DNA of 64,000 bases, taken from positions 41,669 through 105,668 of the forward strand of contig JAHPZH010000003.1 in assembly GCA_019058315.1 (NCBI GenBank), written 5' to 3'. The notes below the pieces were generated by a model. That model did not search any database, was not told the DNA's origin, and saw only the letters and a list, made by a program, of their open reading frames with translations. The translations under genes and the position numbers were made by a program. This document shows, piece after piece, positions 11,622-53,464 of the stretch (its first letter is position 1; each line of letters starts with the position of its first letter). This stretch comes from Candidatus Helarchaeota archaeon. Lineage in GTDB: Archaea; Asgardarchaeota; Lokiarchaeia; Helarchaeales; RDOG01.

Positions 11622-11624
11622 AAT

Positions 11625-25106: not shown

Positions 25107-25140
25107 TATTACACTGTTATACTGAGATAACATTGTTATA
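25107..25140. promoter_or_regulatory. Tandem operators TATTACACTGTTATA (25107-25121) and GATAACATTGTTATA (25126-25140)
   Basis: Downstream of aaaaac-ttttata (BRE/TATA); upstream of the operon ending in cysE-cysK. Confidence 0.85.
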
Positions 25141-26002: not shown

Positions 26003-26030
26003 CTCTTTTTTTTTCTTTAGAGGTGAAAAT

Positions 26031-27086: not shown

Positions 27087-27686
27087 GTGGATATTTATAA
27101 TGAAAAAGATCTAGTTTTAGGTAACCTGTGCAGAGCTTTAAAAATTTTACAAAATAGTAAAAATTTTTATAAGTTAATCCCAGAGGTTAGAATTAATTTC
27201 GTTTATGCCTTAAAAAATGCAAAACTACCTTCTGATGTAGCAGGTATTCCTGGTAGAATTACAGCTATAGGTGATAAACTAATTTTTCCATCCTATCCGC
27301 AATTCGGAGTTTCTGATCATATGGCACGAGCAATGATTGAAATTATGAAATATAATTCCAGTAAGAGAGCAGGTATCAATTTTAAATATACTGATGAATT
27401 AAGAAATTGGATTAAAGAGTATAGTAAAAGAAATAACCTAATTTTTGGATTAATTGATAGATCTAAAGAACCAAAAGAAGTTAGTAGAATTGATGGTCAT
27501 TCCATGCCATGGAAGATTAAAAATTTAATCGAAAGTACTAACAAAGAGGTCCCTGACATCTTTTACGAAAATGAAGCTCTTGGCAAAGAACCATTATTTG
27601 TATTAATCGGAAATTCCGCAATTGAAGTTGCTGAAAAAGTAATAGAAATTACTTCAAGTTTTTATAAAGAGGTTGATGAATTATGA
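27087..27686 (+). CDS. thiN: ThiN-type thiamine-phosphate synthase-family protein
   Basis: [36 protein letters not shown]. Confidence 0.8.
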
Positions 27687-28516
27687 TTAAAAAAGATGGA
27701 TTAAATTTTCATTGCCTTAGTTGTGGAGATCTTCTAGGAGAAAAGGATCAAGAGGCTCTTTGTACTAAATGTCTCTTGAATCTTGAGTTTGATGTTGGTC
27801 AAATTGATTTCGACCATATGAAAGATCATATATTACAAATTCTAGACCATTTTTCATCCGATGTAAGATCAGCTTTTGAAAAAGATCCAGCAGCTAGGTC
27901 AATAGTTGAAGTATTAACTTCTTATCCAGGAATTAAAGCAATACTTCTTCATAGAGTTGCACATTTCTTTTATGAAGTAGGATTACCATTTGTTCCACGT
28001 TTTTTATCAGATGTTTCAAGACAAATTACTGGAATTGATATTCACCCTGGAGCGGAAATAGGGAGTAATTTTTTTATTGATCATGGCTCGGGTACTGTTA
28101 TTGGTGAAACTGCAGAGGTTGGAGATAATTGTACACTTTATCAAAATGTAACTTTGGGAGGTACAAGTCTAAAACGAGAAAAACGACATCCAACTTTAGG
28201 TAATAATGTAGTTATAGGGGCTGGTGCAAAACTTCTTGGACCTATAAAGATCGGAAATAATGTAAAAGTGGGAGCAAATTCTGTCGTTACGAAAGATATT
28301 CCTGATAATGCTGTAGTTGTAGGGGTACCTGGGAGGATAATTTCAAGAGAAGGTAAAAAAATACCCCGAATTGATTTAGATCATGCAGATTTACCTGACC
28401 CTATAGTTAATCTAATTAAAAGACTTGAAGAGAGGATCATAAATTTAGAACATAAAACCACTGAAGATGAGGAAGAATTGGGAGAAGAATTTTTTGATTA
28501 TGGAGGAGGAATATAG
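27683..28516 (+). CDS. cysE: Serine O-acetyltransferase with N-terminal CxxC-x12-CxxC extension
   Basis: [28 protein letters not shown] hexapeptide repeats; ends FFDYGGGI. Confidence 0.93.
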
Positions 28517-28530
28517 GAGGGAATAAAAAT

Positions 28531-29460
28531 ATGTCAAAAATATATAATAATATAATAGAGACTATTGGAAATACTCCAATAGTGAAAATTAATAGAATAA
28601 ATAAAAATCTTAATCTAAAACCAACAATTTTAGTTAAATTAGAATCTTTTAATCCAGCTAGTAGTGTCAAAGATCGTATAGCAATGGCTATGATTGAAGA
28701 TGCAGAAAAAGCGGGAATTATTAAACCAGATAGTCATATAGTTGAACCCACAAGTGGAAATACGGGGATTGGTCTCGCTATTATCTGTGCTGCAAAGGGA
28801 TATAAATTGACTTTGACAATGCCAGAAAGTATGTCGATAGAAAGGAGAAAAATATTAAAAGCATTTGGAGCAGATTTGGTTTTAACCGAGCCAAGTAAGG
28901 GAATGAAAGGAGCAATTATGAAAGCAGAAGAATTAGCAAAGGACTCCGATAAGATTTATATACCTCAACAATTCAAAAACCTTTCAAACCCAAGAATACA
29001 CAGAGAAACTACTGCTGTAGAAATTCTAGAAGCAACAGGTGGTAAATTGGATGCTTTTGTTTCTGGTATTGGAACCGGAGGGACAATAACAGGAGTTGGT
29101 GAAGTTCTTAAAGAAAAGATCAAGAATATTAAAATTTATGCTGTCGAACCTGAGGGATCTCCAGTTTTATCTGGAGGAACACCTGGACCCCATAAAATTC
29201 AAGGAATTGGAGCTGGATTCATTCCAGATGTATTAAATACTAAAATATATGATGAAGTAATTAAAGTAAATTATGAACAAGCCTCAGAATCTGCAAGAAA
29301 TTTAGCTAAATTAGAAGGAATTTTCGTAGGAATATCCTCTGGAGCTGCAATGTATGCAACATTAACAGTAGCGAAAAGAATGGATAAAAATCAGGTTATT
29401 TTAGGAATACTTCCTGATACTGGTGAACGATACTTAACTACAGAATTATGGAACTATTAA
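28531..29460 (+). CDS. cysK: Cysteine synthase A
   Basis: NPASSVKDRIA, EPTSGNTG, GTGGT, HKIQGIGAG, PDTGERY. Confidence 0.96.
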   Translation: MSKIYNNIIETIGNTPIVKINRINKNLNLKPTILVKLESFNPASSVKDRIAMAMIEDAEKAGIIKPDSHIVEPTSGNTGIGLAIICAAKGYKLTLTMPESMSIERRKILKAFGADLVLTEPSKGMKGAIMKAEELAKDSDKIYIPQQFKNLSNPRIHRETTAVEILEATGGKLDAFVSGIGTGGTITGVGEVLKEKIKNIKIYAVEPEGSPVLSGGTPGPHKIQGIGAGFIPDVLNTKIYDEVIKVNYEQASESARNLAKLEGIFVGISSGAAMYATLTVAKRMDKNQVILGILPDTGERYLTTELWNY

Positions 29461-34238: not shown

Positions 34239-35174
34239 TTATTTTCCACTATTCAAATATTTTTTTAGAAAGGGTTCTATTTTTACCGTGTGTGTCTGAA
34301 TCCCCACAACTCTATAGGGATCCCCACCCATTACCAAAGCAATTAATTGAGCTAAATTGAGATGAAATATATTAAATTGCTCTCCATACGTCTTTTCTAA
34401 ATAAGGTTGGTAACGATCGAATTGTAGCTGACAATTAGGGCACATGTGTAATAAAAGATTTACTCCTTCAGACCTCAAACTTTTGAGCTTTTTTAAAGTT
34501 ATTTCTAATGAAAGAGGTTTATTTTTATATCTAACCCTAAAACCCGCACCACAAGTGAGAATCTTTTCAGGATACCAATGAAGTGCATCCAGTCCAATGG
34601 ATTCAGCAATATCATCAAGAACAGTCGTGTCATCATATTTCCCAATGGCATCATTAGAAAAGGTTTTATAATAATGACATGCAGGATGGGACGCAACTCT
34701 TAATTTCGATAAATCAAATTTATTAAATTCCGCTATCTTTTCCCTTACTTTGTGAAAAATCTCAACAACATGAAAAAAGTTATTTTTACTATCCAGATTG
34801 TTCTTATATTTCATACCCACTTGCTCTAAAATACTATTGACTTTTTCATAAATTTCTTGTTTTTCTTTTAATAAAGAGCAACTTTTTTTATTTATAGCAT
34901 AACAAGTGGAACACAAGACTGCAAAATTTTCATATTTTGTTTTTTCTTTAGCAAGCCAAAAATTTCGGGCTGCTATTGTTGTAGTGGAGAGTTGATCGAA
35001 TAAATCATAATAATAACCTAGACCAGTACAACAACTTTGATTAGGATCTTGTATCCAATCAATTCCTAATTTATTAAATGCCCATTTTGTTGAACTTTCC
35101 ACTCCAGGATATTCAACATTCATTAAACAAGATCTAAAGAAGAAGATTTTTCGAGTTGGAATATTTTTTGTCAT
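34239..35174 (-). CDS. hdrB: Heterodisulfide reductase subunit B (methanogen-type)
   Basis: RSC, SCCTG, CSTC, HPACH, TCGAG, CPNCQLQFDRYQ CCG-domain motifs. Confidence 0.92.
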   Translation of the reverse strand: MTKNIPTRKIFFFRSCLMNVEYPGVESSTKWAFNKLGIDWIQDPNQSCCTGLGYYYDLFDQLSTTTIAARNFWLAKEKTKYENFAVLCSTCYAINKKSCSLLKEKQEIYEKVNSILEQVGMKYKNNLDSKNNFFHVVEIFHKVREKIAEFNKFDLSKLRVASHPACHYYKTFSNDAIGKYDDTTVLDDIAESIGLDALHWYPEKILTCGAGFRVRYKNKPLSLEITLKKLKSLRSEGVNLLLHMCPNCQLQFDRYQPYLEKTYGEQFNIFHLNLAQLIALVMGGDPYRVVGIQTHTVKIEPFLKKYLNSGK

Positions 35175-35767
35175 TTTGAATTGTTCCTAAGTTTTTTAAG
35201 TCTTTCAACAAAACCAGTTTGCTCCAGAATAATGCGAATTTCTGTCCTTGCTTTAATTGGCAGTAATGGCGATTCAAGACCGAGTTGTTTTCGCACATTC
35301 TCATTATTCAATCGTATCTCTAACCATTCTTCTCCCCAATCCTCGTATAAACTTTCGACCATTTCTTTTGAATAAGATCCGGCTCCAAGTTCTATGAAAC
35401 TATCCCCATATGCTAAAAAGTCTTGAATTTGATCTTTATTATACCCCTCTTCAATTGATTTCTGTTTAAGAACTTGGATTACGGTTATTGGACTATTTCC
35501 TCGGGGACATCGCATATGACAAGTATAACAAGAAAAACAATTCCAAATTAATTGATCTTGAAGTATATTGGGATATCCTTGCAAAACCGCGTTCATAATT
35601 TTACGTGGAGAAAAATCGCTATATCTAGCTGCAGGACATCCAGATGAACAAAGACCACATTGAATACATTTCAAAAGACCTATATCTTTTGGAGTTCGAT
35701 CAGCTTCCAAAACTTCTTTTAGAATTTTTGTTTTCTTACTATTAGTTTTTTCCAAAAAATCGACCAT
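35171..35767 (-). CDS. hdrC: Heterodisulfide reductase subunit C
   Basis: CIQCGLCSSGCP, SPRKI, WNCFSCYTCHMRCPRG; overlaps the hdrB start. Confidence 0.92.
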   Translation of the reverse strand: MVDFLEKTNSKKTKILKEVLEADRTPKDIGLLKCIQCGLCSSGCPAARYSDFSPRKIMNAVLQGYPNILQDQLIWNCFSCYTCHMRCPRGNSPITVIQVLKQKSIEEGYNKDQIQDFLAYGDSFIELGAGSYSKEMVESLYEDWGEEWLEIRLNNENVRKQLGLESPLLPIKARTEIRIILEQTGFVERLKKLRNNSK

Positions 35768-35797
35768 TTTAATTTAAGAAACAAATATTTCTTTTAA

Positions 35798-36994
35798 TTA
35801 TCTTAACATCTCTAAAAACGCTTCTAACCTAGTCTTGACTTGTCCTGCCGAGCACTGTGTAGGATCTACACAATCTCCATCCAATATCAAAAATGGAATG
35901 CCTTCATCTTGAAATGCTTGTTGAATAGAAGGTGCACCACTAGTCGACTGTCTGCAACCCCAGATTGAATAATGGATGGCGGCATCTATTTTATATTTCT
36001 TTGCAGCTTCAAGATTCATTTTTATTCTTTTTTCAATAGACCCATTGAAAATATTGCGGACATATTTTTTGGCCAGACCTTCGAATAAATCATGATTCTC
36101 AATTTTATGGGAACTTGTCATATATAGTTCGTTAAATACGATTGTAGCATTATTCTGTTCAAAGATCTCCCCAAATAGTTGTAGATTATATAATGGGGGT
36201 AAAAATAACCACATAATTCTAGGAGCATCGTTATCAACAAATCCTTCACCTTTTTCGATTCTTTTTTTAATTTCCTTTAATACTTCTTCATGATATGCAA
36301 TACCATCTAAAAAATTGCCTCCTTTAAAAGTAAAGTTGAAGAGGTCTAATAAAAAACCTTCACTACTGCTCCCGGGAGGTGGTTTTACTGTAGCTCTTAA
36401 ATTACATATTTCTCTATATAAATCAACGCATCTATTAGAAAGTTTCACCATTTCTTTGAACTTATCTACATTAAATTCTTCATAATGACTATGTTTCCCA
36501 ATGAAATCTGCTGCTTTTAACAATTGATTTTTAACATATTCAATTCCCTCTTCATTTTCTTCTGCACCAAAATCGAGATATAATATTGGTTTTTTTTCAT
36601 AATAATTAAGTAAATCAAAACTTTTACCTTGGGCATCACATGAATTAGGAATAGTAGAGACGATCATGTCGGGATTTCTTGGAAACCCCTTTAAAAAGTA
36701 ATTTCCAATGATATGTCTTTGAAAGCTACAACAATCTCTACTAATATATTTCTCTGCTTCAGTCAAGATTTTTTGAGTTTTTGACTCCATAGCTGAAAGG
36801 ACTCCGCTTAATAACTCCGGTTGAAGCGGAATAACATCATTTGCAAAGAATAATTCCAAGGGAGATGGGACGTTTGTCCATGCCATTTTTACATTATTCT
36901 TTTTCGCATTAAGTGCAGTATTCATATATTTAAAAAAATATTTTCCGAATAACGTTCCAGTAGTTGAAAAACCTAATCCGCTCTTAACTGACAT
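35798..36994 (-). CDS. 2-hydroxyacyl-CoA dehydratase (HgdD/BcrB-like) subunit, paralog 2
   Basis: RDCCS, SCD, WGCRQ, DGDCVD, TRLEAFLEML. Confidence 0.88.
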   Translation of the reverse strand: MSVKSGLGFSTTGTLFGKYFFKYMNTALNAKKNNVKMAWTNVPSPLELFFANDVIPLQPELLSGVLSAMESKTQKILTEAEKYISRDCCSFQRHIIGNYFLKGFPRNPDMIVSTIPNSCDAQGKSFDLLNYYEKKPILYLDFGAEENEEGIEYVKNQLLKAADFIGKHSHYEEFNVDKFKEMVKLSNRCVDLYREICNLRATVKPPPGSSSEGFLLDLFNFTFKGGNFLDGIAYHEEVLKEIKKRIEKGEGFVDNDAPRIMWLFLPPLYNLQLFGEIFEQNNATIVFNELYMTSSHKIENHDLFEGLAKKYVRNIFNGSIEKRIKMNLEAAKKYKIDAAIHYSIWGCRQSTSGAPSIQQAFQDEGIPFLILDGDCVDPTQCSAGQVKTRLEAFLEMLR

Positions 36995-36998
36995 ATAA

Positions 36999-38195
36999 TT
37001 ACCTCAACATCTCTAAAAATGCTTCGATTCTCGTCTTTACTTGTTCAGGTGAACAAGTAGTCGGATCTACGCAATCTCCATCTAAAATCAATAAAGGAAT
37101 ATCTTCATCCTGAAATGCTTGTTGAATAGAAGGTGCTCCACTTGTTGATTGGCGACATCCCCATATTGAAAAATGAACTGCTGCATCTATTTTATATTTT
37201 TTAGCAGCCTCTAAATCCATTTTAACCCTTTTTTCAATAGAACCATTAAAAATATTACGTATATGTTTTTTTGCTAATCCTTCGAATAAATCATGGTTCT
37301 CAATTTTGTGGGAGCTTATCATAAAAAGCTCGTTAAAAACTATTACTGCATTATTTTGCTCGAAAATATCTCCAAATAGTTGCATATTATATAAAGGTGG
37401 TAAAAACATCCACATAATCCTAATTGCATCCTCATCAACAATCCCTTCACCTCTTGCAACTCTTTCTTTAAGTTCTTTTAATATTGCCTCATGAAATAAA
37501 ATACAATCATTAAAATTTCCTCCTTTATTCGTGAAATTAAAAATATCAAGTCCAAAACCATCAGCACTATTCATTGGAGGAGGATTTGTTGAGGATCTTA
37601 AATTACATATTTCAATATATGAATCGACGCACTTATTGGATAGCCTTACCATTTCTTTAAACTTTTCTTCATTAAATTCTTCATAATTACTGTTTTTTCC
37701 AATAAAATCAGCTACATTTAACAACTGATTTTTAACATATTGTATTCCTTCTTTATCTTCTTCTGCACCAAAATCGAGGTATATAATAGGTTTTTTCTCG
37801 TAATAATTAAGTAATTCAAAACTCTTTCCTTGAGCATCGCATGAATTTGGAATTGTAGAAACAATCATGTCAGGGTCACGAGGAAATCCCTTTAAAAAAT
37901 AATTGCCAATTACATGTCGTTGGAAAGAGCAGCAGTCTCTAGAAATATATTTTTCTGCCTCCGTTAAAACTTTTTGCGTTTGTGCCTCCATAGCGGAGAG
38001 AATACCGCTTATTAGTTCTGGTTGAAGAGGTATAACATCATTTGCAAAGAATAATTCCAAAGGAGTTGGAATATTTGTCCATGCCATTTTTGTATTATTT
38101 CTTTTAGCATTCAAAGCAGAATCCATATATTTGAAAAATAAGGTTCCCATCATTTCAGTACTTTTTAGAGAACCTTCTGGAAGTTTTATTGCCAT
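36999..38195 (-). CDS. 2-hydroxyacyl-CoA dehydratase (HgdD/BcrB-like) subunit, paralog 1
   Basis: Same motifs; highly similar to 35798-36994. Confidence 0.88.
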   Translation of the reverse strand: MAIKLPEGSLKSTEMMGTLFFKYMDSALNAKRNNTKMAWTNIPTPLELFFANDVIPLQPELISGILSAMEAQTQKVLTEAEKYISRDCCSFQRHVIGNYFLKGFPRDPDMIVSTIPNSCDAQGKSFELLNYYEKKPIIYLDFGAEEDKEGIQYVKNQLLNVADFIGKNSNYEEFNEEKFKEMVRLSNKCVDSYIEICNLRSSTNPPPMNSADGFGLDIFNFTNKGGNFNDCILFHEAILKELKERVARGEGIVDEDAIRIMWMFLPPLYNMQLFGDIFEQNNAVIVFNELFMISSHKIENHDLFEGLAKKHIRNIFNGSIEKRVKMDLEAAKKYKIDAAVHFSIWGCRQSTSGAPSIQQAFQDEDIPLLILDGDCVDPTTCSPEQVKTRIEAFLEMLR

Positions 38196-39326
38196 TTAAT
38201 CACCCAATATTTCCAAAAATGCTTCAATTCGAGTTCTTAGTTGTCCTAAATCAACTCCATATTCGGTTTCTAAATTTAGGATTGGAATCCCAATTTTGTT
38301 TAATTCTTCTTTAAAAATTGGGTAGTCATATTTAAAATTATCACAAAATTTTAGAGTATGATAAATAACTCCATCTATTTTATAATCTTCAATTGCATTC
38401 AACACATAATTTAAACGTGAACGTGAATCTGTTTCTCTCATACGTGGGCATTGAATTTTATTAAATTGATATTCAGCAATCGCAGTGACTGGGTTTTCAA
38501 TTTCTTCATTGATTAAATCAGAGGCATAACGACTTTCAGTGCAAGTTTCTTCAAAAACGACCATTCCTCCTGCTGATTCTACTGTTTTCTGGATTCTCGT
38601 ATCTTGTTCTGCTAAGATACTTCCTGAGTACAGAATTCTCTTTCTTCCATTGATTTTTGGGTAATTATCAATTTCTTTTATCAATAAAGTTAAAAGATCA
38701 TTGACCTTCTCCTTATCTAAAATCATCGCAGCACGATATACCTCGAAAGCATCAATACTGTTTATCGGTACAGCAATCTCTCTTCTTTTCTCTTGAAATT
38801 TTTTTAATAATCGTCTCGTTTCATTAAATATTCCTATTGAATTGGAAATTTCATCATTTGTGATCTTAACATCCAAAAAATCTTCGAGACTTTTAATAAA
38901 TTTTGTAAGCTCTTTTTCGAAATAATTCACTCCATTCTTTGTTTTATTCCTAGGTAAAAGAATTTGATATATGAAGGAGGGTTTATTTAGATGAATTTGC
39001 CATATTTCTAGTAATCTTCTAATAGCATCGCATGTATGTGCAGATACAACTCCATCTAGGAAATCCAATGAATTGCCTGTAAGTTTGTAGCCAAGGATTG
39101 CGCGTGCAAAAGGGCATATCCTTGAAAAAAATAAGTTATCTGCTTCAGATGCTGGAGTGTCTTCATCGCCCCCAGGATAGATTCGGTACGGGATAGCCCC
39201 TCCAGCATGTATAATTTCTTCTGGTGTATAATTACAAATCCAACCAACTATTTTCTTATCATTTATTGTACGGAGTTCATCTATTCTTTTATTATTAAGA
39301 TCCTTAATCTTATCTAAAATTGTCAT
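38196..39326 (-). CDS. 2-hydroxyacyl-CoA dehydratase (HgdB/BcrC-like) subunit
   Basis: GWICNYTPEEIIHA, ICP, TCD, KFCD, GQLRTRIEAFLE. Confidence 0.9.
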   Translation of the reverse strand: MTILDKIKDLNNKRIDELRTINDKKIVGWICNYTPEEIIHAGGAIPYRIYPGGDEDTPASEADNLFFSRICPFARAILGYKLTGNSLDFLDGVVSAHTCDAIRRLLEIWQIHLNKPSFIYQILLPRNKTKNGVNYFEKELTKFIKSLEDFLDVKITNDEISNSIGIFNETRRLLKKFQEKRREIAVPINSIDAFEVYRAAMILDKEKVNDLLTLLIKEIDNYPKINGRKRILYSGSILAEQDTRIQKTVESAGGMVVFEETCTESRYASDLINEEIENPVTAIAEYQFNKIQCPRMRETDSRSRLNYVLNAIEDYKIDGVIYHTLKFCDNFKYDYPIFKEELNKIGIPILNLETEYGVDLGQLRTRIEAFLEILGD

Positions 39327-39341
39327 TATTACACCGTTATA
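39327..39341. promoter_or_regulatory. Operator TATTACACCGTTATA abutting the ATG of 39326
   Basis: Matches the consensus and overlaps the probable RBS. Confidence 0.7.
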
Positions 39342-39399
39342 TTCCTATTTTATCATATCAAATTTTATTTTCAAGATTGTAAATATTAAATAAGTGGGA

Positions 39400-40188
39400 T
39401 TAGCTTTTTTCTAACTTCTCATATGCTATTATTGCAGCCCCTAATGCTCCTGGGATCTGTGGTTCGTCAGGAACTAATACATCCATTTTAAGCTCATCCT
39501 TAATAGCTTTTCTTACACCCACATTTTTCGCAACACCACCACAGAATGCGAGTGTAGGTTGAATTTTAATACGCTTCACCATTCCAACAATTCTTTTGAC
39601 TATAGCCTTATGAATTCCTGAAATGATATCTTCTTTCTGAATCCCACTTGCAAATAAAGAAATAATTTCACTCTCTGCAAAGACTGTACACATTGAACTA
39701 ATGTTTGACGGTTTTTTAGATTTGAGTGATATTGGTCCCATTTCACTAATATGGCCAACTTTAAGAGCATTCGCCATTACTTCAATAAATCTTCCTGTTC
39801 CTGCAGCACATTTGTCATTCATTACAAAGTCTAATACTTTTCCATTTTTTCCTACACTAATACCTTTGGAATCTTGTCCACCAATGTCTATAATAGTCCT
39901 TACGTTGTCACCCAATAAAAAATTAACACCTCGGGCATGGGCACTAATTTCAGTAATGGTCCCATCTGCAAATGGAATTGAATATCGCCCATATCCAGTA
40001 CCCATGATAAAATTGATGTCACCCTTGTTTAAATTACATTGACTCAATGCTTTTTCATAAACTTCTCCCCCAATTCTCTCGAATTCATGACCACTCCGTG
40101 AAATAAAGTACCCAATCATTTTTTCTCCATCATAAAAAGCACATTTAGTTGTTAGACTTCCTATATCTATTCCTGTAGTAATAGGCAA
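39400..40188 (-). CDS. ATP-dependent dehydratase activator (HgdC/BadF/BadG ASKHA ATPase)
   Basis: GIDIGS, TGYGR, DIGGQDSK, MNDKCAAGTGRF, CTVFAESE, GGVAKN. Confidence 0.95.
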   Translation of the reverse strand: MPITTGIDIGSLTTKCAFYDGEKMIGYFISRSGHEFERIGGEVYEKALSQCNLNKGDINFIMGTGYGRYSIPFADGTITEISAHARGVNFLLGDNVRTIIDIGGQDSKGISVGKNGKVLDFVMNDKCAAGTGRFIEVMANALKVGHISEMGPISLKSKKPSNISSMCTVFAESEIISLFASGIQKEDIISGIHKAIVKRIVGMVKRIKIQPTLAFCGGVAKNVGVRKAIKDELKMDVLVPDEPQIPGALGAAIIAYEKLEKS

Positions 40189-45768: not shown

Positions 45769-45783
45769 AATTACATTGTAATA
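45769..45783. promoter_or_regulatory. Operator AATTACATTGTAATA
   Basis: 35 bp upstream of the thrC-like ATG. Confidence 0.75.
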
Positions 45784-45817: not shown

Positions 45818-47074
45818 ATGTCAAAGAGAATAATTGGATTAGAATGTCCGGAATGTGGTATTATTTACCCACAGGAATTAACTCCCATTTGTAAAGAATG
45901 CTGGGGACCCTTAAAAATAAAATATGATTATGAAATAATAAAAGATAAAATTTCTAAAGAAAAACTAAAAAATCGTCCTTTTAATCAATGGAGATATATT
46001 GAATTATTACCCATTGAGGATTTAACTAAAATAATTTCACTTAATGATGGTGGTACTCCATTAATAAGATGTAAAAATTTAGAGACTGAATTAGGTCTTA
46101 AAGAATTGTATGTAAAAAATGATACCATTAATCCTACTTTATCATTTAAAGATCGTCCTGCATCAGTTGGAATATCTAAATGTAACGAATTAGGTATTAA
46201 TACTGTTGGTTGTGCCTCAACAGGAAATTTAGCCGCATCAACTGCCGCCCATGCCGCTAAAGCTGGGTTTCCTTGCTATATTTTTGTTCCAGCAAACATT
46301 GAGTATTCAAAGATTACACAAACAGCAATTCACGGAGTAAATATTATTGGTGTTAATGGAACATATGATGCTGCAAATCAGTTAGGTATTCTTGCAGCTG
46401 AAGTTTTTAAATGGGGGCTTTTAAATATAAACGTACGTCCCTATTACACGGAGGGCTCAAAAACAATCGCTTTTGAAACTTGTGAACAGTTGAATTGGGA
46501 ATCACCTGATAACATAATCATTCCAATGGGAAGTGGTGCATTATTATGTTCGGTCAATAGAGCTCTAATAGATCTATATAAAATTGGTTTTATTGAGAAA
46601 AATAATATCAAAATTTCAGGAGCCCAACCATCTGGATGCTCCCCAATTGTAACGTCCAAAAATACGAAATCTGATATTTTTCCAATTGAAAATCCAGACA
46701 CCTTAACAAAAAGTTTAGCGATAGGAAATCCAGCTAGCGGTTACGAGGCTATTAATGTAATAAATTCTACAAATGGTTGTGCAATTGCGCCTTCTGATTC
46801 TGAAATCACAGATGCGATAAAACTCTTAGCAAAAAGAGAAGGAATTTATGCGGAACCTGCAGGTGCAATTCCGTTAGCTGCTCTAATAAATTTAATTCAG
46901 TCAGGCGATATTTCCAAAGATGAAAGCGTTGTGTTACTTGTAACAGGAAATGGTTTCAAGGCTCATCAAACAGTAACGAATTTAATTTCAGAAATACCCA
47001 TTATCGAACCAACTTTAGATGCATTAGAGAAATATACAAACAAAAAGGAGGCGATAGCATTTGCCAAAAATTAA
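45818..47074 (+). CDS. thrC: Threonine synthase-family PLP enzyme (sulfur-carrier-associated paralog type)
   Basis: N-terminal CPEC/CKEC, NPTLSFKDR, CASTGN, NINVRPYYTEGSKT, TGNGFK; overlaps moaD. Confidence 0.85.
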   Translation: MSKRIIGLECPECGIIYPQELTPICKECWGPLKIKYDYEIIKDKISKEKLKNRPFNQWRYIELLPIEDLTKIISLNDGGTPLIRCKNLETELGLKELYVKNDTINPTLSFKDRPASVGISKCNELGINTVGCASTGNLAASTAAHAAKAGFPCYIFVPANIEYSKITQTAIHGVNIIGVNGTYDAANQLGILAAEVFKWGLLNINVRPYYTEGSKTIAFETCEQLNWESPDNIIIPMGSGALLCSVNRALIDLYKIGFIEKNNIKISGAQPSGCSPIVTSKNTKSDIFPIENPDTLTKSLAIGNPASGYEAINVINSTNGCAIAPSDSEITDAIKLLAKREGIYAEPAGAIPLAALINLIQSGDISKDESVVLLVTGNGFKAHQTVTNLISEIPIIEPTLDALEKYTNKKEAIAFAKN

Positions 47075-47345
47075 ATTTGTATTTTTTTCATCGCTCCATG
47101 ATTTAACAAATACAGAGTCAATTGAATTAGAAATAAATGGAACAGTAGAAAAAGCGTTGGAAAAGATTTATGATATTTATGGAGATGTATTTAAAAATAG
47201 AATTTTAGATAAAAATACGGGAAAAATTAAGAAATACGTCATAGTTGCTATTAATCGAAAAGATATTCGCCATCTCAATGGATATGATACAAAATTAAAT
47301 GAAGCAGATGAAATTTCAATACTTCCCGCTGTTGCAGGAGGCTAA
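47061..47345 (+). CDS. moaD: MoaD/ThiS/SAMP ubiquitin-like sulfur carrier
   Basis: Beta-grasp pattern ending DEISILPAVAGG (C-terminal GG); aaggagg RBS with TTG start. Confidence 0.92.
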   Translation: MPKIKFVFFSSLHDLTNTESIELEINGTVEKALEKIYDIYGDVFKNRILDKNTGKIKKYVIVAINRKDIRHLNGYDTKLNEADEISILPAVAGG

Positions 47346-47371
47346 AATCTAAATTTGGTGATTTTTAATAA

Positions 47372-48025
47372 ATGATATCTCTTGAAACTAAAATAAATGA
47401 AATTATAAAGATTTTAGATACCAAATTTTCTCCTGTTGGAGTTAAAATTATACAAAATAATGATCAACATATCGATAATTCTTTTCAAGAAGTGAATGAA
47501 AATAAGAGATTTTGCTATTATGTACGTCAAGCTGCGTTAGGAAAGAAATTTATTATTAAGAATGATAACAAACTTGAGTGTAAGACCCCATATTATTGTT
47601 TAGGATTTAAAGAACCAAAATATGGTAATTTTGATTATAGAATTAGACCAGCTATTACAAAGACTGTTTTAATAGCTCCATTAAATAAATTTAAAATGAA
47701 CGTAGATAGCGTTGTTTTTATTATAAACGCAAAACAGTCAATGCTATTAGTTGATGCTCTACGAAGAATTCAAAAGAAGAAGATACAGGCAACTTTTGGA
47801 GTGTCTATGTCTATTTGTGGGGAAATTGTTGCGAATTCTATTGTGAATAAAACCCCTAGTTTATCTCTTCTTTGTTATGGGGCTCGAATTTATTCCGATT
47901 ATAAAAATAATGAACTTGCTCTAGGAATTCCATTTGTATTGTTTGATTCTATCTATGAAAATTTGAAAAAAATTGAGAAGTTACAGGAATTAGAGGAAGA
48001 ATTAAAAAATTTAGAGGTGAAATAA
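47372..48025 (+). CDS. DUF169-family protein
   Basis: PVGVK, RFC, ICGE, SLLCYGAR, ELALGIP. Confidence 0.78.
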   Translation: MISLETKINEIIKILDTKFSPVGVKIIQNNDQHIDNSFQEVNENKRFCYYVRQAALGKKFIIKNDNKLECKTPYYCLGFKEPKYGNFDYRIRPAITKTVLIAPLNKFKMNVDSVVFIINAKQSMLLVDALRRIQKKKIQATFGVSMSICGEIVANSIVNKTPSLSLLCYGARIYSDYKNNELALGIPFVLFDSIYENLKKIEKLQELEEELKNLEVK

Positions 48026-48834
48026 TGTTTGGGTTTACAGAAGAAGAAATAAGAAGATATAGCCGTCAAATTGTATTAAAAGGTGTAGGAGGAGTAGGCC
48101 AGAAAAAATTAAGAGAATCATCAGTTCTTGTAGTAGGAGCTGGTGGTCTTGGTTGTCCTGCTGCTTTTTATCTGACAGCTGCAGGGGTTGGAAAATTAGG
48201 AATTCTAGATTTCGATGTTGTAGATATAAGTAATTTACAAAGACAAATATTACATTTTACTAAAGATGTTGGAAAGCCAAAGGTAATTTCAGCTGCAGAA
48301 AAATTAAGAGAATTAAACCCAAATATTACTATTGACACTATTCAAACTCAATTGACTCCCAAAAATGCAAGGGAAATAATAAAACCTTATGATTATGTTA
48401 TTGATGGATCTGATAATTTTGCGACAAAGTATATTATAAATGATGCTTGTATTATAGAAGATATTCCATTCACAATGGCAGGGATTTTAGCTTTTAATGG
48501 TCAAATTATGACAGTAATCCCTAAAAAATCTGCATGTTACCGTTGTGCTTATTCTGATCCTCCACCCCCAGGAGTAGTCCCAAGTTGTTCACAAGCGGGA
48601 GTTTTTGGAGCAATACCAGGTATTGTTGGATCTATTCAGACTAGTGAGGCAATTAAATATCTACTTGGTTTTGGGGAACTTCTAACTAATAAGATATTAG
48701 TGGTTGATATAGGAAGTTTGATATTTCAATTAGTTACAGTGAAAAAGAGTGATGATTGTAAAGCATGTGGTAATGTTCCTGAAGATCTTTTAAATGTTTT
48801 TGATTATTATCAAGGAGAATCATGTGAAATATAA
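48025..48834 (+). CDS. moeB: MoeB/ThiF/UbaA E1-like adenylyltransferase (no rhodanese domain)
   Basis: RYSRQI, GAGGLG, DISNLQRQ, DGSDNF, CYRC, CSQAG, CKAC. Confidence 0.93.
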   Translation: MFGFTEEEIRRYSRQIVLKGVGGVGQKKLRESSVLVVGAGGLGCPAAFYLTAAGVGKLGILDFDVVDISNLQRQILHFTKDVGKPKVISAAEKLRELNPNITIDTIQTQLTPKNAREIIKPYDYVIDGSDNFATKYIINDACIIEDIPFTMAGILAFNGQIMTVIPKKSACYRCAYSDPPPPGVVPSCSQAGVFGAIPGIVGSIQTSEAIKYLLGFGELLTNKILVVDIGSLIFQLVTVKKSDDCKACGNVPEDLLNVFDYYQGESCEI

Positions 48835-48840
48835 AATTAG

Positions 48841-49086
48841 GTGATTAAAATTACAAAAAATGATATTAGGAAAATAGATTTAAAGGGTGAGGTTTGTCCA
48901 TATACGTTTGTTTTGACCAAACTAAATCTGGAGGAAATGCAACCAAATCAGATTTTAGAAGTGATTGTTGATTATCCACCAGCGGCTGAGAATATACCTC
49001 GCAGTATAAAAGATCAAAATTTAGGTGAAGTTTTGAGTGTAGATAAATTAAGTAACGTAGAATGGAGAATCAAGATAAAAAAATAA
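48841..49086 (+). CDS. tusA: Sulfur carrier TusA family
   Basis: IDLKGEVCPYT, DYPPAAENIP. Confidence 0.88.
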   Translation: MIKITKNDIRKIDLKGEVCPYTFVLTKLNLEEMQPNQILEVIVDYPPAAENIPRSIKDQNLGEVLSVDKLSNVEWRIKIKK

Positions 49087-49134
49087 CAAACAAGATGAAA
49101 TATTGAAAAAAATAAAATATTGGAGAGTGATGAG

Positions 49135-49449
49135 ATGGCAAATGTGTTAATAATAATATCAAAAGAAAAATACCAATCTAACAAGACTCAGTTAGCTATA
49201 GAAATTTCAAAAAATATTCAAAATAAAGGGAATTCTACAACAGTTTATCTTGTTGAAGATGGCGTGTATTTAGGTTGGGACAGTAGTATCAATGATTTAA
49301 TTAAAACAGGTATAATTGTGAAGGCTGACGAGTGGGATCTAAAAGCCAGAGGATTAAAAGGAAAGATTAATGAAAAAATTGAGATTAAAACTCCTAATGA
49401 TCTTTTTAACGAAGTAGCTGAGAATAGTGATAAGGTTTTATGGTTTTAG
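49135..49449 (+). CDS. DsrH/TusB-like protein
   Basis: YLVEDGVY, DLKARGL; no Cys. Confidence 0.75.
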   Translation: MANVLIIISKEKYQSNKTQLAIEISKNIQNKGNSTTVYLVEDGVYLGWDSSINDLIKTGIIVKADEWDLKARGLKGKINEKIEIKTPNDLFNEVAENSDKVLWF

Positions 49450-49460
49450 GAGGTAAATAT

Positions 49461-49856
49461 ATGGTAAAAACTTTAACATTTATTGTGACAAAAGGTCCTT
49501 ATTCCTCTGAAATTCCTTATACAGTCTTAAAACTAGTTAAAGCAGCTCGAAAAAAAAATGTGAATATTAATCTTTTCTTCTATCTTGATGGGACATTTAT
49601 TAGCCACCACAAACAATCTCCTGGTGATTACCCCAATGTTCAATATATAACCCATGATTTATTGAAAAAAGGTCTTTTAAATCCCAAAATAGATGCGATC
49701 GCATGCATTAAATGTACCCATGCTAGAGGAATTACACATGGAGACGATTCATTTAAAGAAGGTTCTGCTTACACATATGAAGGAGTTATTATTGGGGGAT
49801 TAGGCGATTTAGCAATCTGGCTTAAAAATAGTGATAAAACCATATTAATTAGTTAG
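49461..49856 (+). CDS. DsrE/TusD-like protein
   Basis: GPYSSE, FFYLDG, ACIKCTHARG, GGLGDL; aggaggt RBS before ATG 49461. Confidence 0.82.
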   Translation: MVKTLTFIVTKGPYSSEIPYTVLKLVKAARKKNVNINLFFYLDGTFISHHKQSPGDYPNVQYITHDLLKKGLLNPKIDAIACIKCTHARGITHGDDSFKEGSAYTYEGVIIGGLGDLAIWLKNSDKTILIS

Positions 49857-49867
49857 GAGATGATTTT

Positions 49868-50242
49868 TTGACAAAAGTGATTATAATCATAACAGATCCG
49901 CCTTATGGGGTAGAGAATGCTTATGGATTCTTGGCGGCTGCAGGAGCTTTAGCCACTATTCATGACACAAGTGTCATTTTTTCAGAAGCAGGAGTACTAA
50001 ATTCTCTTAAAAATCAAGATACTTCAGATTTCATTGAACTGGATAAAAAATATTTGGATATACCATCTCATGAATCAAAAATAAAGGAATTCAAAGAATT
50101 AGATATCCGATTTTTTGTTCATAAGGAGGCTTTAGATATACGAGGAATAAAAGATGGTGATATTATAGAAGATATAGAGAAACTATCAATCGATCAGATA
50201 ACGGACAAAATACTTGACAGTGATCAGGTGCTAATTATATAA
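49868..50242 (+). CDS. DsrF/TusC-like protein
   Basis: PPYG, FSEAGV, ALDIRGI; no Cys. Confidence 0.75.
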   Translation: MTKVIIIITDPPYGVENAYGFLAAAGALATIHDTSVIFSEAGVLNSLKNQDTSDFIELDKKYLDIPSHESKIKEFKELDIRFFVHKEALDIRGIKDGDIIEDIEKLSIDQITDKILDSDQVLII

Positions 50243-50263
50243 TTTTTTTACTAGTTGATAAAA

Positions 50264-50506
50264 ATGGTAACAAAGAACTTAGAAGTAAGTCTAATTATTG
50301 ATTCTCAAGGAAAAATTTGCCCCTATCCCCTAATTGAAGTAAAAAAAGCAATAAAGAAGTTATCATCTGGTGAAATATTAAAATTAATTACAACAGATCC
50401 TATATGTCCTGATAATGTTGATTCATGGTGTGAAACTACTGGAAATACTTTGATTCGAGTCGATAATCACGGAGATAAAATTGATATTTACGTAAAAAAA
50501 GGTTGA
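50264..50506 (+). CDS. tusA: Sulfur carrier TusA family
   Basis: IDSQGKICPYP, TTDP, WCETTGN. Confidence 0.9.
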   Translation: MVTKNLEVSLIIDSQGKICPYPLIEVKKAIKKLSSGEILKLITTDPICPDNVDSWCETTGNTLIRVDNHGDKIDIYVKKG

Positions 50507-50558
50507 TAGATTGTTGTGATTTTTCATTATAAGCTATTTTGAATTTTGAGCGAATTTT

Positions 50559-51677
50559 ATGCTATTAGATTATACAAAGTTAAAATTAAATTTATTAATT
50601 GATGGAGTTAATCCTGAAAATGAAAATTTAATAGGTAGAATGAGTGGTGCAGGGCCTACTGGAGGAAGATATTTTTTATTAGAAAATGGTTCATGTGTTA
50701 ATATTCCACTTTGGACGAAAAATTCAAAATATTCTAGGTTTTGGATAAAAAAATTTGATGATCAAAATAACTTATTTCAATTATTCGATGATAAGAAATT
50801 AATTACAACACTAAAATTAATTCCTAGACCTAAATTTTATGATTTAAACACTTCAGATAATATTAAAATGAGTAAAATTGCTATGTTACATGGAGAAAAT
50901 TGTCTTGCATCAACTATTTATCAAAAATGTATCTATTGGTCACAAGGAAAAGCTTGTGAATTTTGTGGAATTGAATTAAGTCTAAGGTCAAATTCAACTA
51001 TACTAGAGAAAACAGCTAAACAATTGTCCGAAGTTTTGGATAAAAGTATAAAGGAGGGAGTTTGTGAACATATGACTCTTACTACAGGGACTCCCAATAC
51101 TTCCGATAAGGGTGCAAAAAAATTCATGCCCATTTTGAAAGAATTAAAAAGGAAGTTTTCTGTTCCTATCCATATCCAACTTGAACCTCCAGAGAATCAG
51201 ATAATTATAGAAGATTTATATTCATCTGGAGCAGATACAATTGGAATTCATGCTGAAACTTTAGATCCTTTAATATTTCATAAAATCTGTCCAGGAAAAT
51301 CAGAAATTGGACTAAAAAAGTTTAAAGAAATATGGAATTACTCAGTAGAGATATTTGGTAAAGAACAAGTCAGTTCATATCTTTTATTGGGATTAGGTGA
51401 ATCTTTGGAATCACTTCAAAAAGGTGCACACTATCTTATAGAGCATGATGTGATTCCATATATTGTGCCAGTCCGTTCTATTTTAGAAACAAATTTCGAA
51501 AATGTTCAACAAAAAAATTTTCAACAAATATATAATCTATATAAAGATGTAAATAATCACTTAAAAAAGCATAATCTGGACCCTCGGCAAAATAAAGCAG
51601 GTTGTGTACGTTGTGGTGCATGTAGCATAATTACAGATTTTTACAACATAAAAATAGAATCGAAAAATGAAAATTAA
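50559..51677 (+). CDS. Radical SAM protein, MSMEG_0568/NitD-like (related to LipS1-type sulfur-insertion enzymes)
   Basis: GAGP, LHG, Cx8CxxC (CIYWSQGKACEFC), LTTGT, EPP, CPGK, QVSSY, C-terminal AGCVRCGACS. Confidence 0.82.
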   Translation: MLLDYTKLKLNLLIDGVNPENENLIGRMSGAGPTGGRYFLLENGSCVNIPLWTKNSKYSRFWIKKFDDQNNLFQLFDDKKLITTLKLIPRPKFYDLNTSDNIKMSKIAMLHGENCLASTIYQKCIYWSQGKACEFCGIELSLRSNSTILEKTAKQLSEVLDKSIKEGVCEHMTLTTGTPNTSDKGAKKFMPILKELKRKFSVPIHIQLEPPENQIIIEDLYSSGADTIGIHAETLDPLIFHKICPGKSEIGLKKFKEIWNYSVEIFGKEQVSSYLLLGLGESLESLQKGAHYLIEHDVIPYIVPVRSILETNFENVQQKNFQQIYNLYKDVNNHLKKHNLDPRQNKAGCVRCGACSIITDFYNIKIESKNEN

Positions 51678-51780: not shown

Positions 51781-52320
51781 TTGGTGTTTTTTATTATAAG
51801 GAATATTTTTATTATAAGGAATGGTGTTCTCTTATTAGATCGGAATTTTGGAGAATGTCAGTCGTTTAATGGAAGTTTTTCTTTATTTTCTGGATTTGTT
51901 AGCGCGCTTGAGACTTTTACAGGTGAAATTACAAAATCTGCTTTAAAATCAATAAATTTCGAGGATTTTAAAATCAATTTTTACAGAGATCTTAATAAAT
52001 TAGACCTACTTTATGTTCTTATAACAGATCTGGATGATAATTATGATCAAATTCAACATAAATTAAAAAAAATTTCTAGACTATTTTTAGAAAAACATCA
52101 AGATATTCTTACGAATTTTGATGGAAATATAAACCAATTCAATAAATTTGGAGATATATTAATTGATATGGAAATAGCTCAAAAAAATTGTGGTGGTCAT
52201 CCAGAATGTTATGAGTGCCAAAATCGAAATAACAACAGTAAAATATTTATGGCCTATAAAAAAGATACTATTGGATTCAAAAATCAAATTAATTCATTAA
52301 TTGAAGAATCCACAGAATAA
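51781..52320 (+). CDS. Asgard-type longin-like protein with C-terminal CGGHPECYEC motif
   Basis: NIFIIRNGVLL...LFSGFVSALETFTGEI...LKSINFED...FDG pattern. Confidence 0.6.
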   Translation: MVFFIIRNIFIIRNGVLLLDRNFGECQSFNGSFSLFSGFVSALETFTGEITKSALKSINFEDFKINFYRDLNKLDLLYVLITDLDDNYDQIQHKLKKISRLFLEKHQDILTNFDGNINQFNKFGDILIDMEIAQKNCGGHPECYECQNRNNNSKIFMAYKKDTIGFKNQINSLIEESTE

Positions 52321-52327
52321 AATTATT

Positions 52328-53464
52328 TTATAATAAGCTAATTTCAAAAATTACTCTTGCATATTCATATTTTGAATTTAATAAATTAAGAACTCTACTT
52401 ATAAACTTATATAGATTTTTAGAATATTGAAGTTTTTTGCGCTCATGAATAACCAAATTTTCGTAAATTCTTTCTCTTGTAGCATCAGGTTCATAATTAT
52501 GATCATCTAACCAATGGGAGGAGACTTTACAAACCTTTATAACATCTTCATCTGGAAATAATTTTCTATCTTTAAATGTGTCTTTATAAGTATTTATGGA
52601 TACACCCACCCTCTTTATGTAATAAGCGATTCCATGGGCATATCTACATAAACTTATAATATTTGAAGTCACTCTTGGATCTCTCATATTTGCACACTCT
52701 AGAATAGCAGCCCATGGGCTATTTGGATCCTCACTTTCTGGTATATTGTTAACTATTGCGATATTTATTATATCACTGAGATCAACATCAAAACCTCTTT
52801 TTAATTTCTTTTTAATTATATTTTTAAGATTTGATCCCTCCAAATACCCACCTGACCCAAAATTAAGACTTTGGAGGAGGTCATTAGACGCTATAAGTAT
52901 TGTAGACTTCCTTTTATTAGTCCATAGATCTTTCCATGTGACTTTCTTTTCCCATTCTCTTGTTATTTTATTTTTTTTCCAGCCAGTTTTCTTTAAGACA
53001 TATTCTAATAAAGTAGGACTTGGAAACCAAAAATCTATATCATCAGTTGATCTCTTTCGTCTCCAATCTCTTGTAGTTATATCCTCTAAATATAATCTAA
53101 TAGCACCTCTCAAAAAATTAAGTTGATTATTATCTTTTAATAATTCGGCAGCAATTCGGTGAAATTTATTAGCTGGAACCTCGGAAATTTCTTTAATTTT
53201 GTTTAAAATAATTTTTGCTTCATTAGCAGCAATATCAACAGGTACATTACCATCTGATGGATATTCTCTTGAACCTCCCTCTAGGAATTTTTGAAATAAT
53301 TCAAAGTCATCCTCGGGTATAACATATTTTGGATTATCGAATATTTCACTGGTAAAAACATAATGTGTATAGCCAAATTCATCATCATATTGTTTAATAA
53401 AATCGATAGTTCTTAGATTATCATTATAATCTACTGCGTTAGATTTATAACTCCAAACTTGCAT
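52328..53464 (-). CRISPR. Not a CRISPR feature; placeholder type corrected by the CDS entry with the same coordinates
   Basis: No repeat-spacer structure; region is protein coding. Confidence 0.
52328..53464 (-). CDS. Hypothetical protein, possible nucleotidyltransferase fold
   Basis: 378-aa ORF; FLRGAIRLYL...RSTDDIDFW resembles the R-x-T-x-D-I-D NTase motif. Confidence 0.6.
   Translation of the reverse strand: MQVWSYKSNAVDYNDNLRTIDFIKQYDDEFGYTHYVFTSEIFDNPKYVIPEDDFELFQKFLEGGSREYPSDGNVPVDIAANEAKIILNKIKEISEVPANKFHRIAAELLKDNNQLNFLRGAIRLYLEDITTRDWRRKRSTDDIDFWFPSPTLLEYVLKKTGWKKNKITREWEKKVTWKDLWTNKRKSTILIASNDLLQSLNFGSGGYLEGSNLKNIIKKKLKRGFDVDLSDIINIAIVNNIPESEDPNSPWAAILECANMRDPRVTSNIISLCRYAHGIAYYIKRVGVSINTYKDTFKDRKLFPDEDVIKVCKVSSHWLDDHNYEPDATRERIYENLVIHERKKLQYSKNLYKFISRVLNLLNSKYEYARVIFEISLL

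Follow-up and report, generated by a model that had tools for sequence, protein, structure and literature searches.

What does an operon make that opens with a gene of the threonine synthase family and continues with a ubiquitin-like sulfur carrier, a carrier-activating E1 enzyme, persulfide relay proteins and a radical S-adenosylmethionine (SAM) enzyme? Such a string of genes lies in a 64,000-nt stretch (the window) of contig JAHPZH010000003.1, from the 5.8-Mb, 94%-complete genome of a Candidatus Helarchaeota (Asgard) archaeon, and the best homologs of its proteins also belong to Ca. Helarchaeota (68–91% identity). The open reading frame (ORF) listing of the window gave ten ORFs on the + strand between 45818 and 51677, spaced by -14 to +53 nt, and their families were assigned by Pfam and NCBIfam. 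Both the coordinates and the families agree with a preliminary description, made from the sequence alone, in which the locus was seen as a ten-gene same-strand operon behind an operator. The comparisons reported here indicate that its core is probably a MetM/MetO-type operon for homocysteine synthesis, leading to methionine. The features of the locus are as follows.

45770..45782, no strand: 13-bp palindromic operator ATTACATTGTAAT, 36 nt before the first ATG
About 25 nt upstream of the operator: TATA-like element TTTATAAATA
45818..47074, +: gene 1, probable MetM-type ThrC-family pyridoxal phosphate (PLP) enzyme, 418 aa, with an N-terminal four-cysteine zinc ribbon (PALP 230 bits, TIGR00260 269 bits)
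47061..47345, +: gene 2, MetO-like ubiquitin-fold sulfur carrier, 94 aa, MoaD/SAMP1-like, ending in AVAGG-stop (ThiS/MoaD; TIGR01687 65.6 bits)
47372..48025, +: gene 3, short-type DUF169 protein, 217 aa (Pfam 115 bits)
48025..48834, +: gene 4, MoeB/ThiF/UbaA-type E1 adenylyltransferase, 269 aa (ThiF 274 bits), with two CxxC zinc motifs and a cysteine in PSCSQAG
48841..49086, +: gene 5, TusA1, 81 aa, with a CPY active-site cysteine motif (TusA family match; 74 and 72 bits for the TusA pair)
49120..49449, +: gene 6, DsrH/TusB-like subunit, 109 aa, no cysteine (weak: PF04077 20.9 bits with a cutoff of 24.4, TIGR03011 29 bits)
49440..49856, +: gene 7, DsrE/TusD-like subunit, 138 aa, with a cysteine in ACIKCTHARG (Pfam DsrE; 57 and 55 bits for the DsrE-fold pair)
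49868..50242, +: gene 8, DsrF/TusC-like subunit, 124 aa, without a cysteine at the corresponding site (the other member of the DsrE-fold pair)
50255..50506, +: gene 9, TusA2, 83 aa, with a CPY motif (the other member of the TusA pair)
50559..51677, +: gene 10, radical SAM enzyme, 372 aa, TIGR04043/MSMEG_0568 family (313.6 bits, cutoff 303.7)

According to Table 2 of PMC13759103 and the outline in PMC12172450, MetM and MetO act with MoeZ and Mec in an O-phospho-L-homoserine route to homocysteine in Streptomyces albulus (Hasebe, Adachi, Maruyama, Hamano, Appl Environ Microbiol 2024;90:e0124724), and the MetM/MetO/MoeZ/Mec route is given as included in GapMind 2026. By homology, genes 1, 2 and 4 of the Helarchaeota operon correspond to this already known core, a MetM/MetO/E1 system. 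To place gene 1, whose homologs carry the name ‘threonine synthase’ in source databases, related loci were collected with a homolog profile (80 genome loci and at least 60 metagenome loci). The Streptomyces loci L099, L106, L107 and L109, chosen by an upstream SAM riboswitch and a downstream carrier gene, served as proxies for S. albulus MetM; they were taken as metM/metO because these two features match the published description. Two trees were built, with branch supports from the Shimodaira–Hasegawa-like approximate likelihood ratio test (SH-aLRT), the second leaving out the long-branch rows L005, L122 and L123. In both, the window protein falls in the MetM-type group with the Streptomyces metM-type genes (SH-aLRT 92–94), and the second ThrC of the same genome falls in a separate canonical group (SH-aLRT 97–98) with the short ThrC of Streptomyces, Dehalococcoidia and Geoglobus. 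At the positions that discriminate the clades, the window protein carries the MetM-type residue in 19 of 24 cases.

The gene neighbourhoods point the same way. Of the 120 loci whose sequence reached far enough past the ThrC-like gene, 109 have a MoaD-like carrier gene in the same orientation no more than 1.3 kb downstream, and loci with this arrangement span archaea and at least seven bacterial phyla. Most of the recovered carrier C-termini (80 of 92) end in GG or in GG plus one or two residues, and in archaeal loci (Nitrososphaerota, Thermoproteota, Bathyarchaeota and Geoglobus) an E1 gene comes after the carrier. A SAM riboswitch directly precedes the metM-type gene in all six actinomycete loci and in five of seven loci from other bacterial phyla (11 of 13 tested), and both types of ThrC were present in each of the five other genomes checked. 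The protein encoded by gene 1 is thus predicted to make homocysteine from O-phosphohomoserine and the carrier thiocarboxylate. Cysteate synthase was also considered for this enzyme and rejected (89 bits with a cutoff of 325). A metagenome search with the single protein gave no relative of more than 50% identity among the matches listed, and a MetM-type ortholog was not found in 60 GTDB relatives (best 38–39% identity).

The preliminary description called the product of gene 1 a ThrC paralog and had suggested looking for a second thrC. This paralog is distinct from the enzyme that makes threonine for housekeeping: besides the separation of the two clades, a canonical thrC is present at about 796–797 kb of the same contig (C11), about 710 kb from the operon and directly after hom (NF004912, 419 bits). 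In this cluster (C11:~794.5–800.2 kb, locus L202) hom and thrC share the - strand with a 164-aa ORF, and divergent from them stands a homolog of the PGM-like ‘proposed homoserine kinase’ (TIGR02535, 364 bits, below the cutoff); no GHMP-type thrB scored above the cutoff in the genome. Since hom, the kinase-like homolog and thrC are clustered, a source of O-phosphohomoserine is plausible. The earlier proposal that the ThrC paralog and the radical SAM enzyme yield a thiol product, homocysteine or an unknown thio-cofactor, can be kept for homocysteine, given the MetM clade; the pathway was published in 2024 and is not new. The ‘threonine synthase’ label of this gene and its homologs is, on the present evidence, better replaced by homocysteine synthase, and the 2024 pathway would extend to Asgard archaea.

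Synteny in relatives, which the preliminary description had left to be checked, was assessed from accession spacing. In three Helarchaeota assemblies the accession offsets of the ThrC, DUF169 and radical SAM orthologs are 0/-2/-9 (MHA1380294/292/285, MHA1384884/882/875 and MHA1299885/883/876), matching gene positions 1, 3 and 10. The last two assemblies share identical proteins and therefore represent one population, giving two populations in all; in a fourth assembly the offset from ThrC to the radical SAM gene is 7 (NVM52835/52842). The spacing of these three orthologs fits a ten-gene order kept within Helarchaeota at 56–80% protein identity. Beyond Helarchaeota, only sub-modules are shared. 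The checks by which the preliminary description could have been refuted thus all turned out in its favour.

The question of how the carrier receives its sulfur is raised by the E1. Its relatives in the PDB are Uba4, ThiF and MoeB, and with only 269 aa it has no room for a rhodanese domain, as had been noted earlier. TusA1 adjoins the E1 gene here and in three unrelated MetM-MetO-E1-TusA loci (L044 of Geoglobus and the metagenome loci L137 and L162), and E1-TusA pairs also occur in the Lokiarchaeia loci L026–L029. TusA1 therefore appears to be the best candidate for the role played by the rhodanese domain of MoeZ and Uba4. The carrier and the E1 resemble SAMP1 and UbaA of Haloferax; equivalog identity was rejected for both, with scores under the NCBIfam cutoffs (SAMP1 51 bits with a cutoff of 60, UbaA 298 bits with a cutoff of 450). 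ThiH/ThiG-type thiazole synthesis and MoaE-type molybdopterin synthesis were likewise set aside, since the operon has no such genes.

The DUF169 protein is the second candidate partner. Its alignments have four near-invariant cysteines (C48, C70, C149 and C168), its subfamily counts just 197 cluster representatives (E < 1e-3), and the AlphaFold2 model is of high confidence (pLDDT 95). It has no sequence match in the PDB and no Foldseek match at E <= 1e-3 (best VIA Z 5.5), and a single-protein search of genome contigs found no related loci. A literature search gave no characterisation of DUF169 function and no more than isolated associations with SepRS, a TauE-like exporter and selenium genes. 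Four of the six Lokiarchaeia loci holding a short-type DUF169 have it together with E1 and TusA, without MetM; among about 140 loci, DUF169 stands beside MetM in none outside Helarchaeota. From its cysteines and these neighbours, DUF169 is a candidate Fe-S or persulfide partner of E1 and TusA.

The triads lie at L026:5062-7912 (genome G001), L027:8798-10840 and L132:4596-10681 (G044), L028:207-3789 (G039) and L029:6811-9602 (G008). Varied sets of OsmC-like, MoaD, NMT1-like, ThiI-like (PP-loop and NFACT-R) and LarE-like genes and a homolog of a 179-aa ORF of the window flank them, and G044 has two radical SAM genes in addition; OsmC-like, NMT1-like, MoaD, ThiI-like, LarE-like and 179-aa proteins are all neighbours shared with the window.

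Sulfur supply to archaeal ubiquitin-like carriers is, to our knowledge, unsettled. Among the parts that could replace the rhodanese-fused MoeZ of bacteria, TusA is the recurrent one and DUF169, uncharacterised, cysteine-rich and with no solved structural relative, comes second; the E1-TusA-DUF169 triad is a concrete candidate for sulfur delivery to archaeal carriers and the most useful lead from this locus. A broader proposal can be made only tentatively and is rather doubtful as a whole: DUF169 and TusA would be the missing sulfur-delivery partner of the rhodanese-less archaeal E1, thiocarboxylating SAMP/MoaD-type carriers in many anaerobic archaea, and the DsrEFH-like trio, TusA2 and the radical SAM enzyme would form a persulfide-fed thiolation module that re-sulfurates an auxiliary cluster.

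The DsrEFH-like trio resembles TusBCD/DsrEFH in sequence and lacks two features of that group. The cysteine of ACIKCTHARG in the DsrE-like subunit aligns with that of VVCVAAAQRRG in Allochromatium DsrE (PDB 2hy5_A), which we take to be Cys78. A cysteine is conserved in Allochromatium DsrH as well, and the DsrH-like subunit of the operon has none. The other missing feature is the acceptor: searches of the 94%-complete genome gave no DsrC/TusE (PF04358, TIGR02064) and no DsrA. The NCBIfam equivalog cutoffs are far above the scores of the trio, and the trio was not found in 60 GTDB relatives, which hold distant single YchN-like homologs only. A dissimilatory Dsr pathway was rejected, neither dsrA nor dsrC being found; this outcome fits a biosynthetic relay, as had been suggested from the lack of dsrAB in the window. 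That a DsrEFH relay charges the carrier, as also proposed there, stays conjectural, the partner kept with the E1 across lineages being TusA, joined in Lokiarchaeia by DUF169.

The radical SAM enzyme has a variant C-x8-C-x2-C SAM cluster motif, the invariant cysteines C115, C124, C133 and C136, and a C-terminal C349-x2-C352-x2-C355 motif that is likely to bind an auxiliary cluster. No sequence relative was found for it in the PDB. Foldseek searches with its AlphaFold2 model (pLDDT 90) gave LipA as the top match (2.7e-9, TMt 0.63), followed by HydE and BioB; judging by these motifs and this model, it might be a two-cluster enzyme that inserts sulfur. LipA itself has a CX3CX2C SAM cluster and an N-terminal CX4CX5C auxiliary motif, whereas the operon enzyme has C115 and the C-terminal CxxCxxC. 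LipA identity was rejected on the absence of CX4CX5C and the presence of C-x8-C-x2-C, and the NCBIfam LipS2 score is 35 bits with a cutoff of 270.

The family of this enzyme is widespread, occurring in 179 of the 301 Asgard genomes sampled, and a second, housekeeping copy with 47% identity lies at C6:171133-172191 (L200:7125-8210) of the same genome. The operon protein shares 63–80% identity with four Helarchaeota proteins and at most 48% with others; by sequence, it is an operon-specific paralog. Asgard members of the family (loci L127–L136 and the C6 copy) adjoin a GNAT acetyltransferase gene in 3 of 11 loci and a gene for a 445-aa CoA-binding/succinyl-CoA-ligase-like protein in 6 of 11. The joint action of the radical SAM enzyme and the ThrC paralog supposed in the preliminary description gained no support, since outside Helarchaeota MetM-MetO(-E1-TusA) occurs without radical SAM, and Asgard genomes carry the family widely in unrelated contexts. 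DUF169, the DsrEFH-like genes and radical SAM could owe their place beside the homocysteine genes to a co-transcription, in this lineage alone, of functions that are separate.

The operator noted earlier ahead of the operon, ATTACATTGTAAT, is present and enriched in the window. The relaxed palindrome AYWACANTGTWRT occurs eight times there, with 0.16 occurrences expected and none of 100 shuffles reaching eight, and the perfect form ATTACANTGTAAT has just three copies in the 5.8-Mb genome, all in the window and within 10 kb. The sites lie at 25108, 25127, 41768, 43544, 45770, 51755, 54841 and 55030 (together 25108-55042), are in tandem at places, follow the consensus ATTACANTGTWAT and stand 14–120 nt ahead of gene starts. 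The exact or near-exact form alone clusters: the one-mismatch pattern shows no excess genome-wide (49 occurrences, about 50 expected), and of the operator sites outside contig C11, three in number, none is close to a gene start. The genes with an operator are the following.

25202-29460: ferredoxin / AIRS-like / ThiN / cysE / cysK operon, operator in front
Divergent ferredoxin-domain / LarE-like pair, operator in front
Divergent DUF2099 / ThiI-like pair, operator in front
Divergent NMT1-like gene and the ten-gene metM operon, operator between them
179-aa ORF, operator in front
Geranylgeranyl-reductase (GGR)-like flavoprotein, operator in front

The shared operator marks a local sulfur regulon that includes cysE-cysK, LarE-like, ThiI-like, DUF2099 and ThiN genes and the ten-gene operon. 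Such a compact set of cysteine, homocysteine, thiamine-related and thiolation genes in an uncultured, alkyl-coenzyme M (CoM)-reductase-bearing lineage is useful for metabolic reconstruction.

From family membership and synteny we infer the following chemical steps. One promoter, with the palindromic, repressor-type operator overlapping it, would drive all ten genes as a single transcription unit. The E1 would adenylate the C-terminal Gly-Gly of the MoaD-like carrier, as expected from its homology to MoeB, ThiF and Uba4, and TusA1, in place of the MoeZ/Uba4 rhodanese domain, would hand persulfide sulfur to the adenylated carrier. A cysteine desulfurase, for instance the NifS/IscS-like product of 11625-12800, could supply this sulfur. 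DUF169 may help in one of two ways: as a reductant, of Fe-S or thiol type, by which an acyl-persulfide is resolved to the thiocarboxylate, or as an alternative sulfide donor. The MetM enzyme would then convert O-phosphohomoserine, supplied through the hom/PGM-like kinase/thrC cluster about 710 kb away, and the carrier thiocarboxylate into homocysteine, with release of the product possibly needing a JAMM hydrolase encoded elsewhere. The DsrH/E/F-like trio and TusA2 could act as a second persulfide buffer; as no DsrC/TusE was found, this buffer would pass sulfur either to the carrier of gene 2 or to the downstream radical SAM enzyme, whose LipA/HydE/BioB-like fold and probable auxiliary cluster would suit sulfur insertion or a cluster-dependent reaction. 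The roles assigned to TusA1, DUF169, the trio and the radical SAM enzyme are each less certain than the core assignment.

Compared with MetM/MetO of S. albulus, the Helarchaeota operon shares the same-clade ThrC-family PLP enzyme, the GG-ended MoaD/ThiS-fold carrier after it, a separate canonical thrC and an E1 predicted to activate the carrier. It differs in the E1, which lies in the operon and lacks the rhodanese domain of MoeZ, in the addition of two TusA proteins, the trio, DUF169 and radical SAM, in the lack of Mec/JAMM in the cluster, in the palindromic operator that stands in place of a SAM riboswitch, and in its Asgard host. The CysO/CysM system has MoeZ and Mec as further parts, and its sulfur is transferred as a protein thiocarboxylate. 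In this system of Mycobacterium tuberculosis and in HcyS/HcyF/HcyD/MetY of Wolinella succinogenes (Krishnamoorthy & Begley 2011; Tran et al. 2011, as summarised in PMC5764234 and PMC8191291), as predicted here, a protein thiocarboxylate is the sulfide donor to a PLP enzyme making a sulfur amino acid, with an E1-type activator; there, however, the client enzymes (CysM, MetY) belong to other folds or families and a JAMM protease is included. TusA-TusBCD-TusE of Escherichia coli, which serves tRNA 2-thiouridine synthesis, and TusA-DsrEFH-DsrC of Allochromatium share with the operon TusA, three consecutive DsrE-fold genes and the DsrE/TusD motif cysteine; the differences are the gene order H-E-F and the two missing features named above. 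With the TIGR04043/MSMEG_0568 radical SAM enzymes of Nit1C clusters, finally, the operon enzyme shares an above-cutoff score, its best structural matches being LipA, HydE and biotin synthase, but the Nit1C neighbourhood (nitrilase, GNAT, flavoprotein and AIRS-like genes) was not found in the window and this copy is the operon-specific paralog. What is new here is the company in which MetM/MetO is found: an E1 free of rhodanese, a pair of TusA proteins, a DsrEFH-like trio with no DsrC partner, DUF169 and a radical SAM paralog private to the operon, all behind a sulfur-regulon operator.

Several observations weigh against the assignment of the operon to homocysteine synthesis. The window protein differs from the MetM type at 5 of the 24 discriminating positions, and its terminal branch is long (1.04, with a median of 0.4). 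An Rfam scan of the whole window gave no family above threshold, so that no SAM- or methionine-sensing element was found there, and the operon is instead behind an operator that it shares with cysE-cysK. The DsrH-like subunit, besides having no cysteine in its 109 residues, scores under the Pfam cutoff, and DUF169, DsrEFH-like genes and radical SAM are found beside MetM in none of the roughly 140 non-Helarchaeota loci. A Mec-type JAMM gene was not found in the operon, and the JAMM search found none in the window, in line with the preliminary description; the genome has six Prok-JAB matches above the cutoff elsewhere, including a 149-aa stand-alone protein at C10:142428-142877, so that JAMM genes, which were to be looked for, do exist outside the window, though no link to the operon was found. 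In a JAMM query of the related loci, Mec-like genes near MetM were found at one other locus only. Finally, the genome has other possible homocysteine routes, namely two COG1900/HcyBio genes and one PF01053 enzyme; the homocysteine supply is therefore probably redundant and the operon need not be essential.

The operon might alternatively serve a different product. That all ten proteins make one thiolated cofactor or metabolite other than homocysteine, with the MetM-like enzyme and the radical SAM enzyme forming C-S bonds on the same scaffold, is unlikely but deserves mention: a step of coenzyme M or coenzyme B (CoB) supply would be an example. The genome has three McrA-like (alkyl/methyl-CoM reductase alpha) genes, at C5:377506, C3:198869 and C11:316902, which fits the Helarchaeota hydrocarbon-oxidiser lineage and its need for CoM and CoB thiols; the operator also precedes DUF2099 (‘methanogenesis marker 8’), and HdrBC-like genes are near. 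The accession spacing in other Helarchaeota assemblies, which fits the full ten-gene order, and the radical SAM paralog private to the operon, with its LipA/BioB/HydE-like fold and extra invariant CxxCxxC, agree with such a joint product too. However, about 140 loci have the complete MetM-MetO(-E1-TusA) module with none of these extras, and in bacteria SAM riboswitches control it. The window enzyme keeps most MetM-type residues and scores far below the cysteate synthase cutoff, and the Asgard relatives of the radical SAM enzyme stand beside GNAT and CoA-ligase-like genes, not sulfur genes.

A second threonine synthase, co-transcribed by chance with a general SAMP/MoaD-type system of carrier, E1, TusA and DUF169 for tRNA thiolation, molybdopterin or protein conjugation, is improbable to a high degree. 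The canonical thrC beside hom, in a different clade, the carrier adjacency in 109 of 120 loci and the riboswitches at 11 of 13 bacterial loci all oppose it, and the eight ThiF-family and eight ThiS-family genes of the genome leave other carriers for general roles; in its favour are the NCBIfam thrC equivalog score of 269 bits, above the cutoff, the resemblance of carrier and E1 to SAMP1 and UbaA, though below the cutoffs, and the Lokiarchaeia relatives in which E1-TusA-DUF169 and MoaD stand beside ThiI-like and LarE-like genes with no ThrC-like gene. A third possibility is that the PLP enzyme acts on O-phosphoserine, like CysM with CysO in Mycobacterium, so that the operon would make cysteine. 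Both reactions would be PLP beta/gamma-replacements that use a carrier thiocarboxylate, and the operator on cysE-cysK links the regulon to cysteine; but by fold family the enzyme is a ThrC and by clade a MetM, not a CysK/CysM, its bacterial orthologs are under SAM riboswitches and not cysteine control, and a bona fide cysE-cysK pair is already in the regulon, which makes this outcome scarcely credible. Homocysteine synthesis by a MetM/MetO-type core is thus the reading we prefer.

One of the HcyBio genes has an E1 of its own nearby. At C9:~181.7-184.8 kb (L198:4708-7818, - strand), consecutive ORFs encode a 501-aa COG1900/HcyBio protein that carries CBS domains, a 128-aa ferredoxin, a second MoeB-type E1 of 247 aa and an 85-aa product. 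The arrangement of HcyBio, CBS and ferredoxin is as in the aspartate-semialdehyde route to homocysteine (PMC5764234), and this string may represent that route joined to another E1.

Other genes of the window include the string at 10839-12800 (- strand), in which the NifS/IscS-like cysteine desulfurase (11625-12800, 497 bits) stands ahead of a NifU/IscU-like scaffold that carries a fused thioredoxin-reductase-like part; persulfide for the TusA proteins might come from this source. Beside the sulfur regulon, at 34239-40188 (- strand), a BadF/BcrA-type ATPase, HgdD-type subunits and HdrC/HdrB-like (CCG-domain) genes form one string, with no hdrA in view there. Just downstream of the operon, the ORFs at 51781-52320 (+, 179 aa) and 52328-53464 (-, 378 aa) gave no Pfam or NCBIfam match. 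The former has its own operator, and its 42%-identical homolog adjoins DUF169 in G001 (L026:7313-7912).

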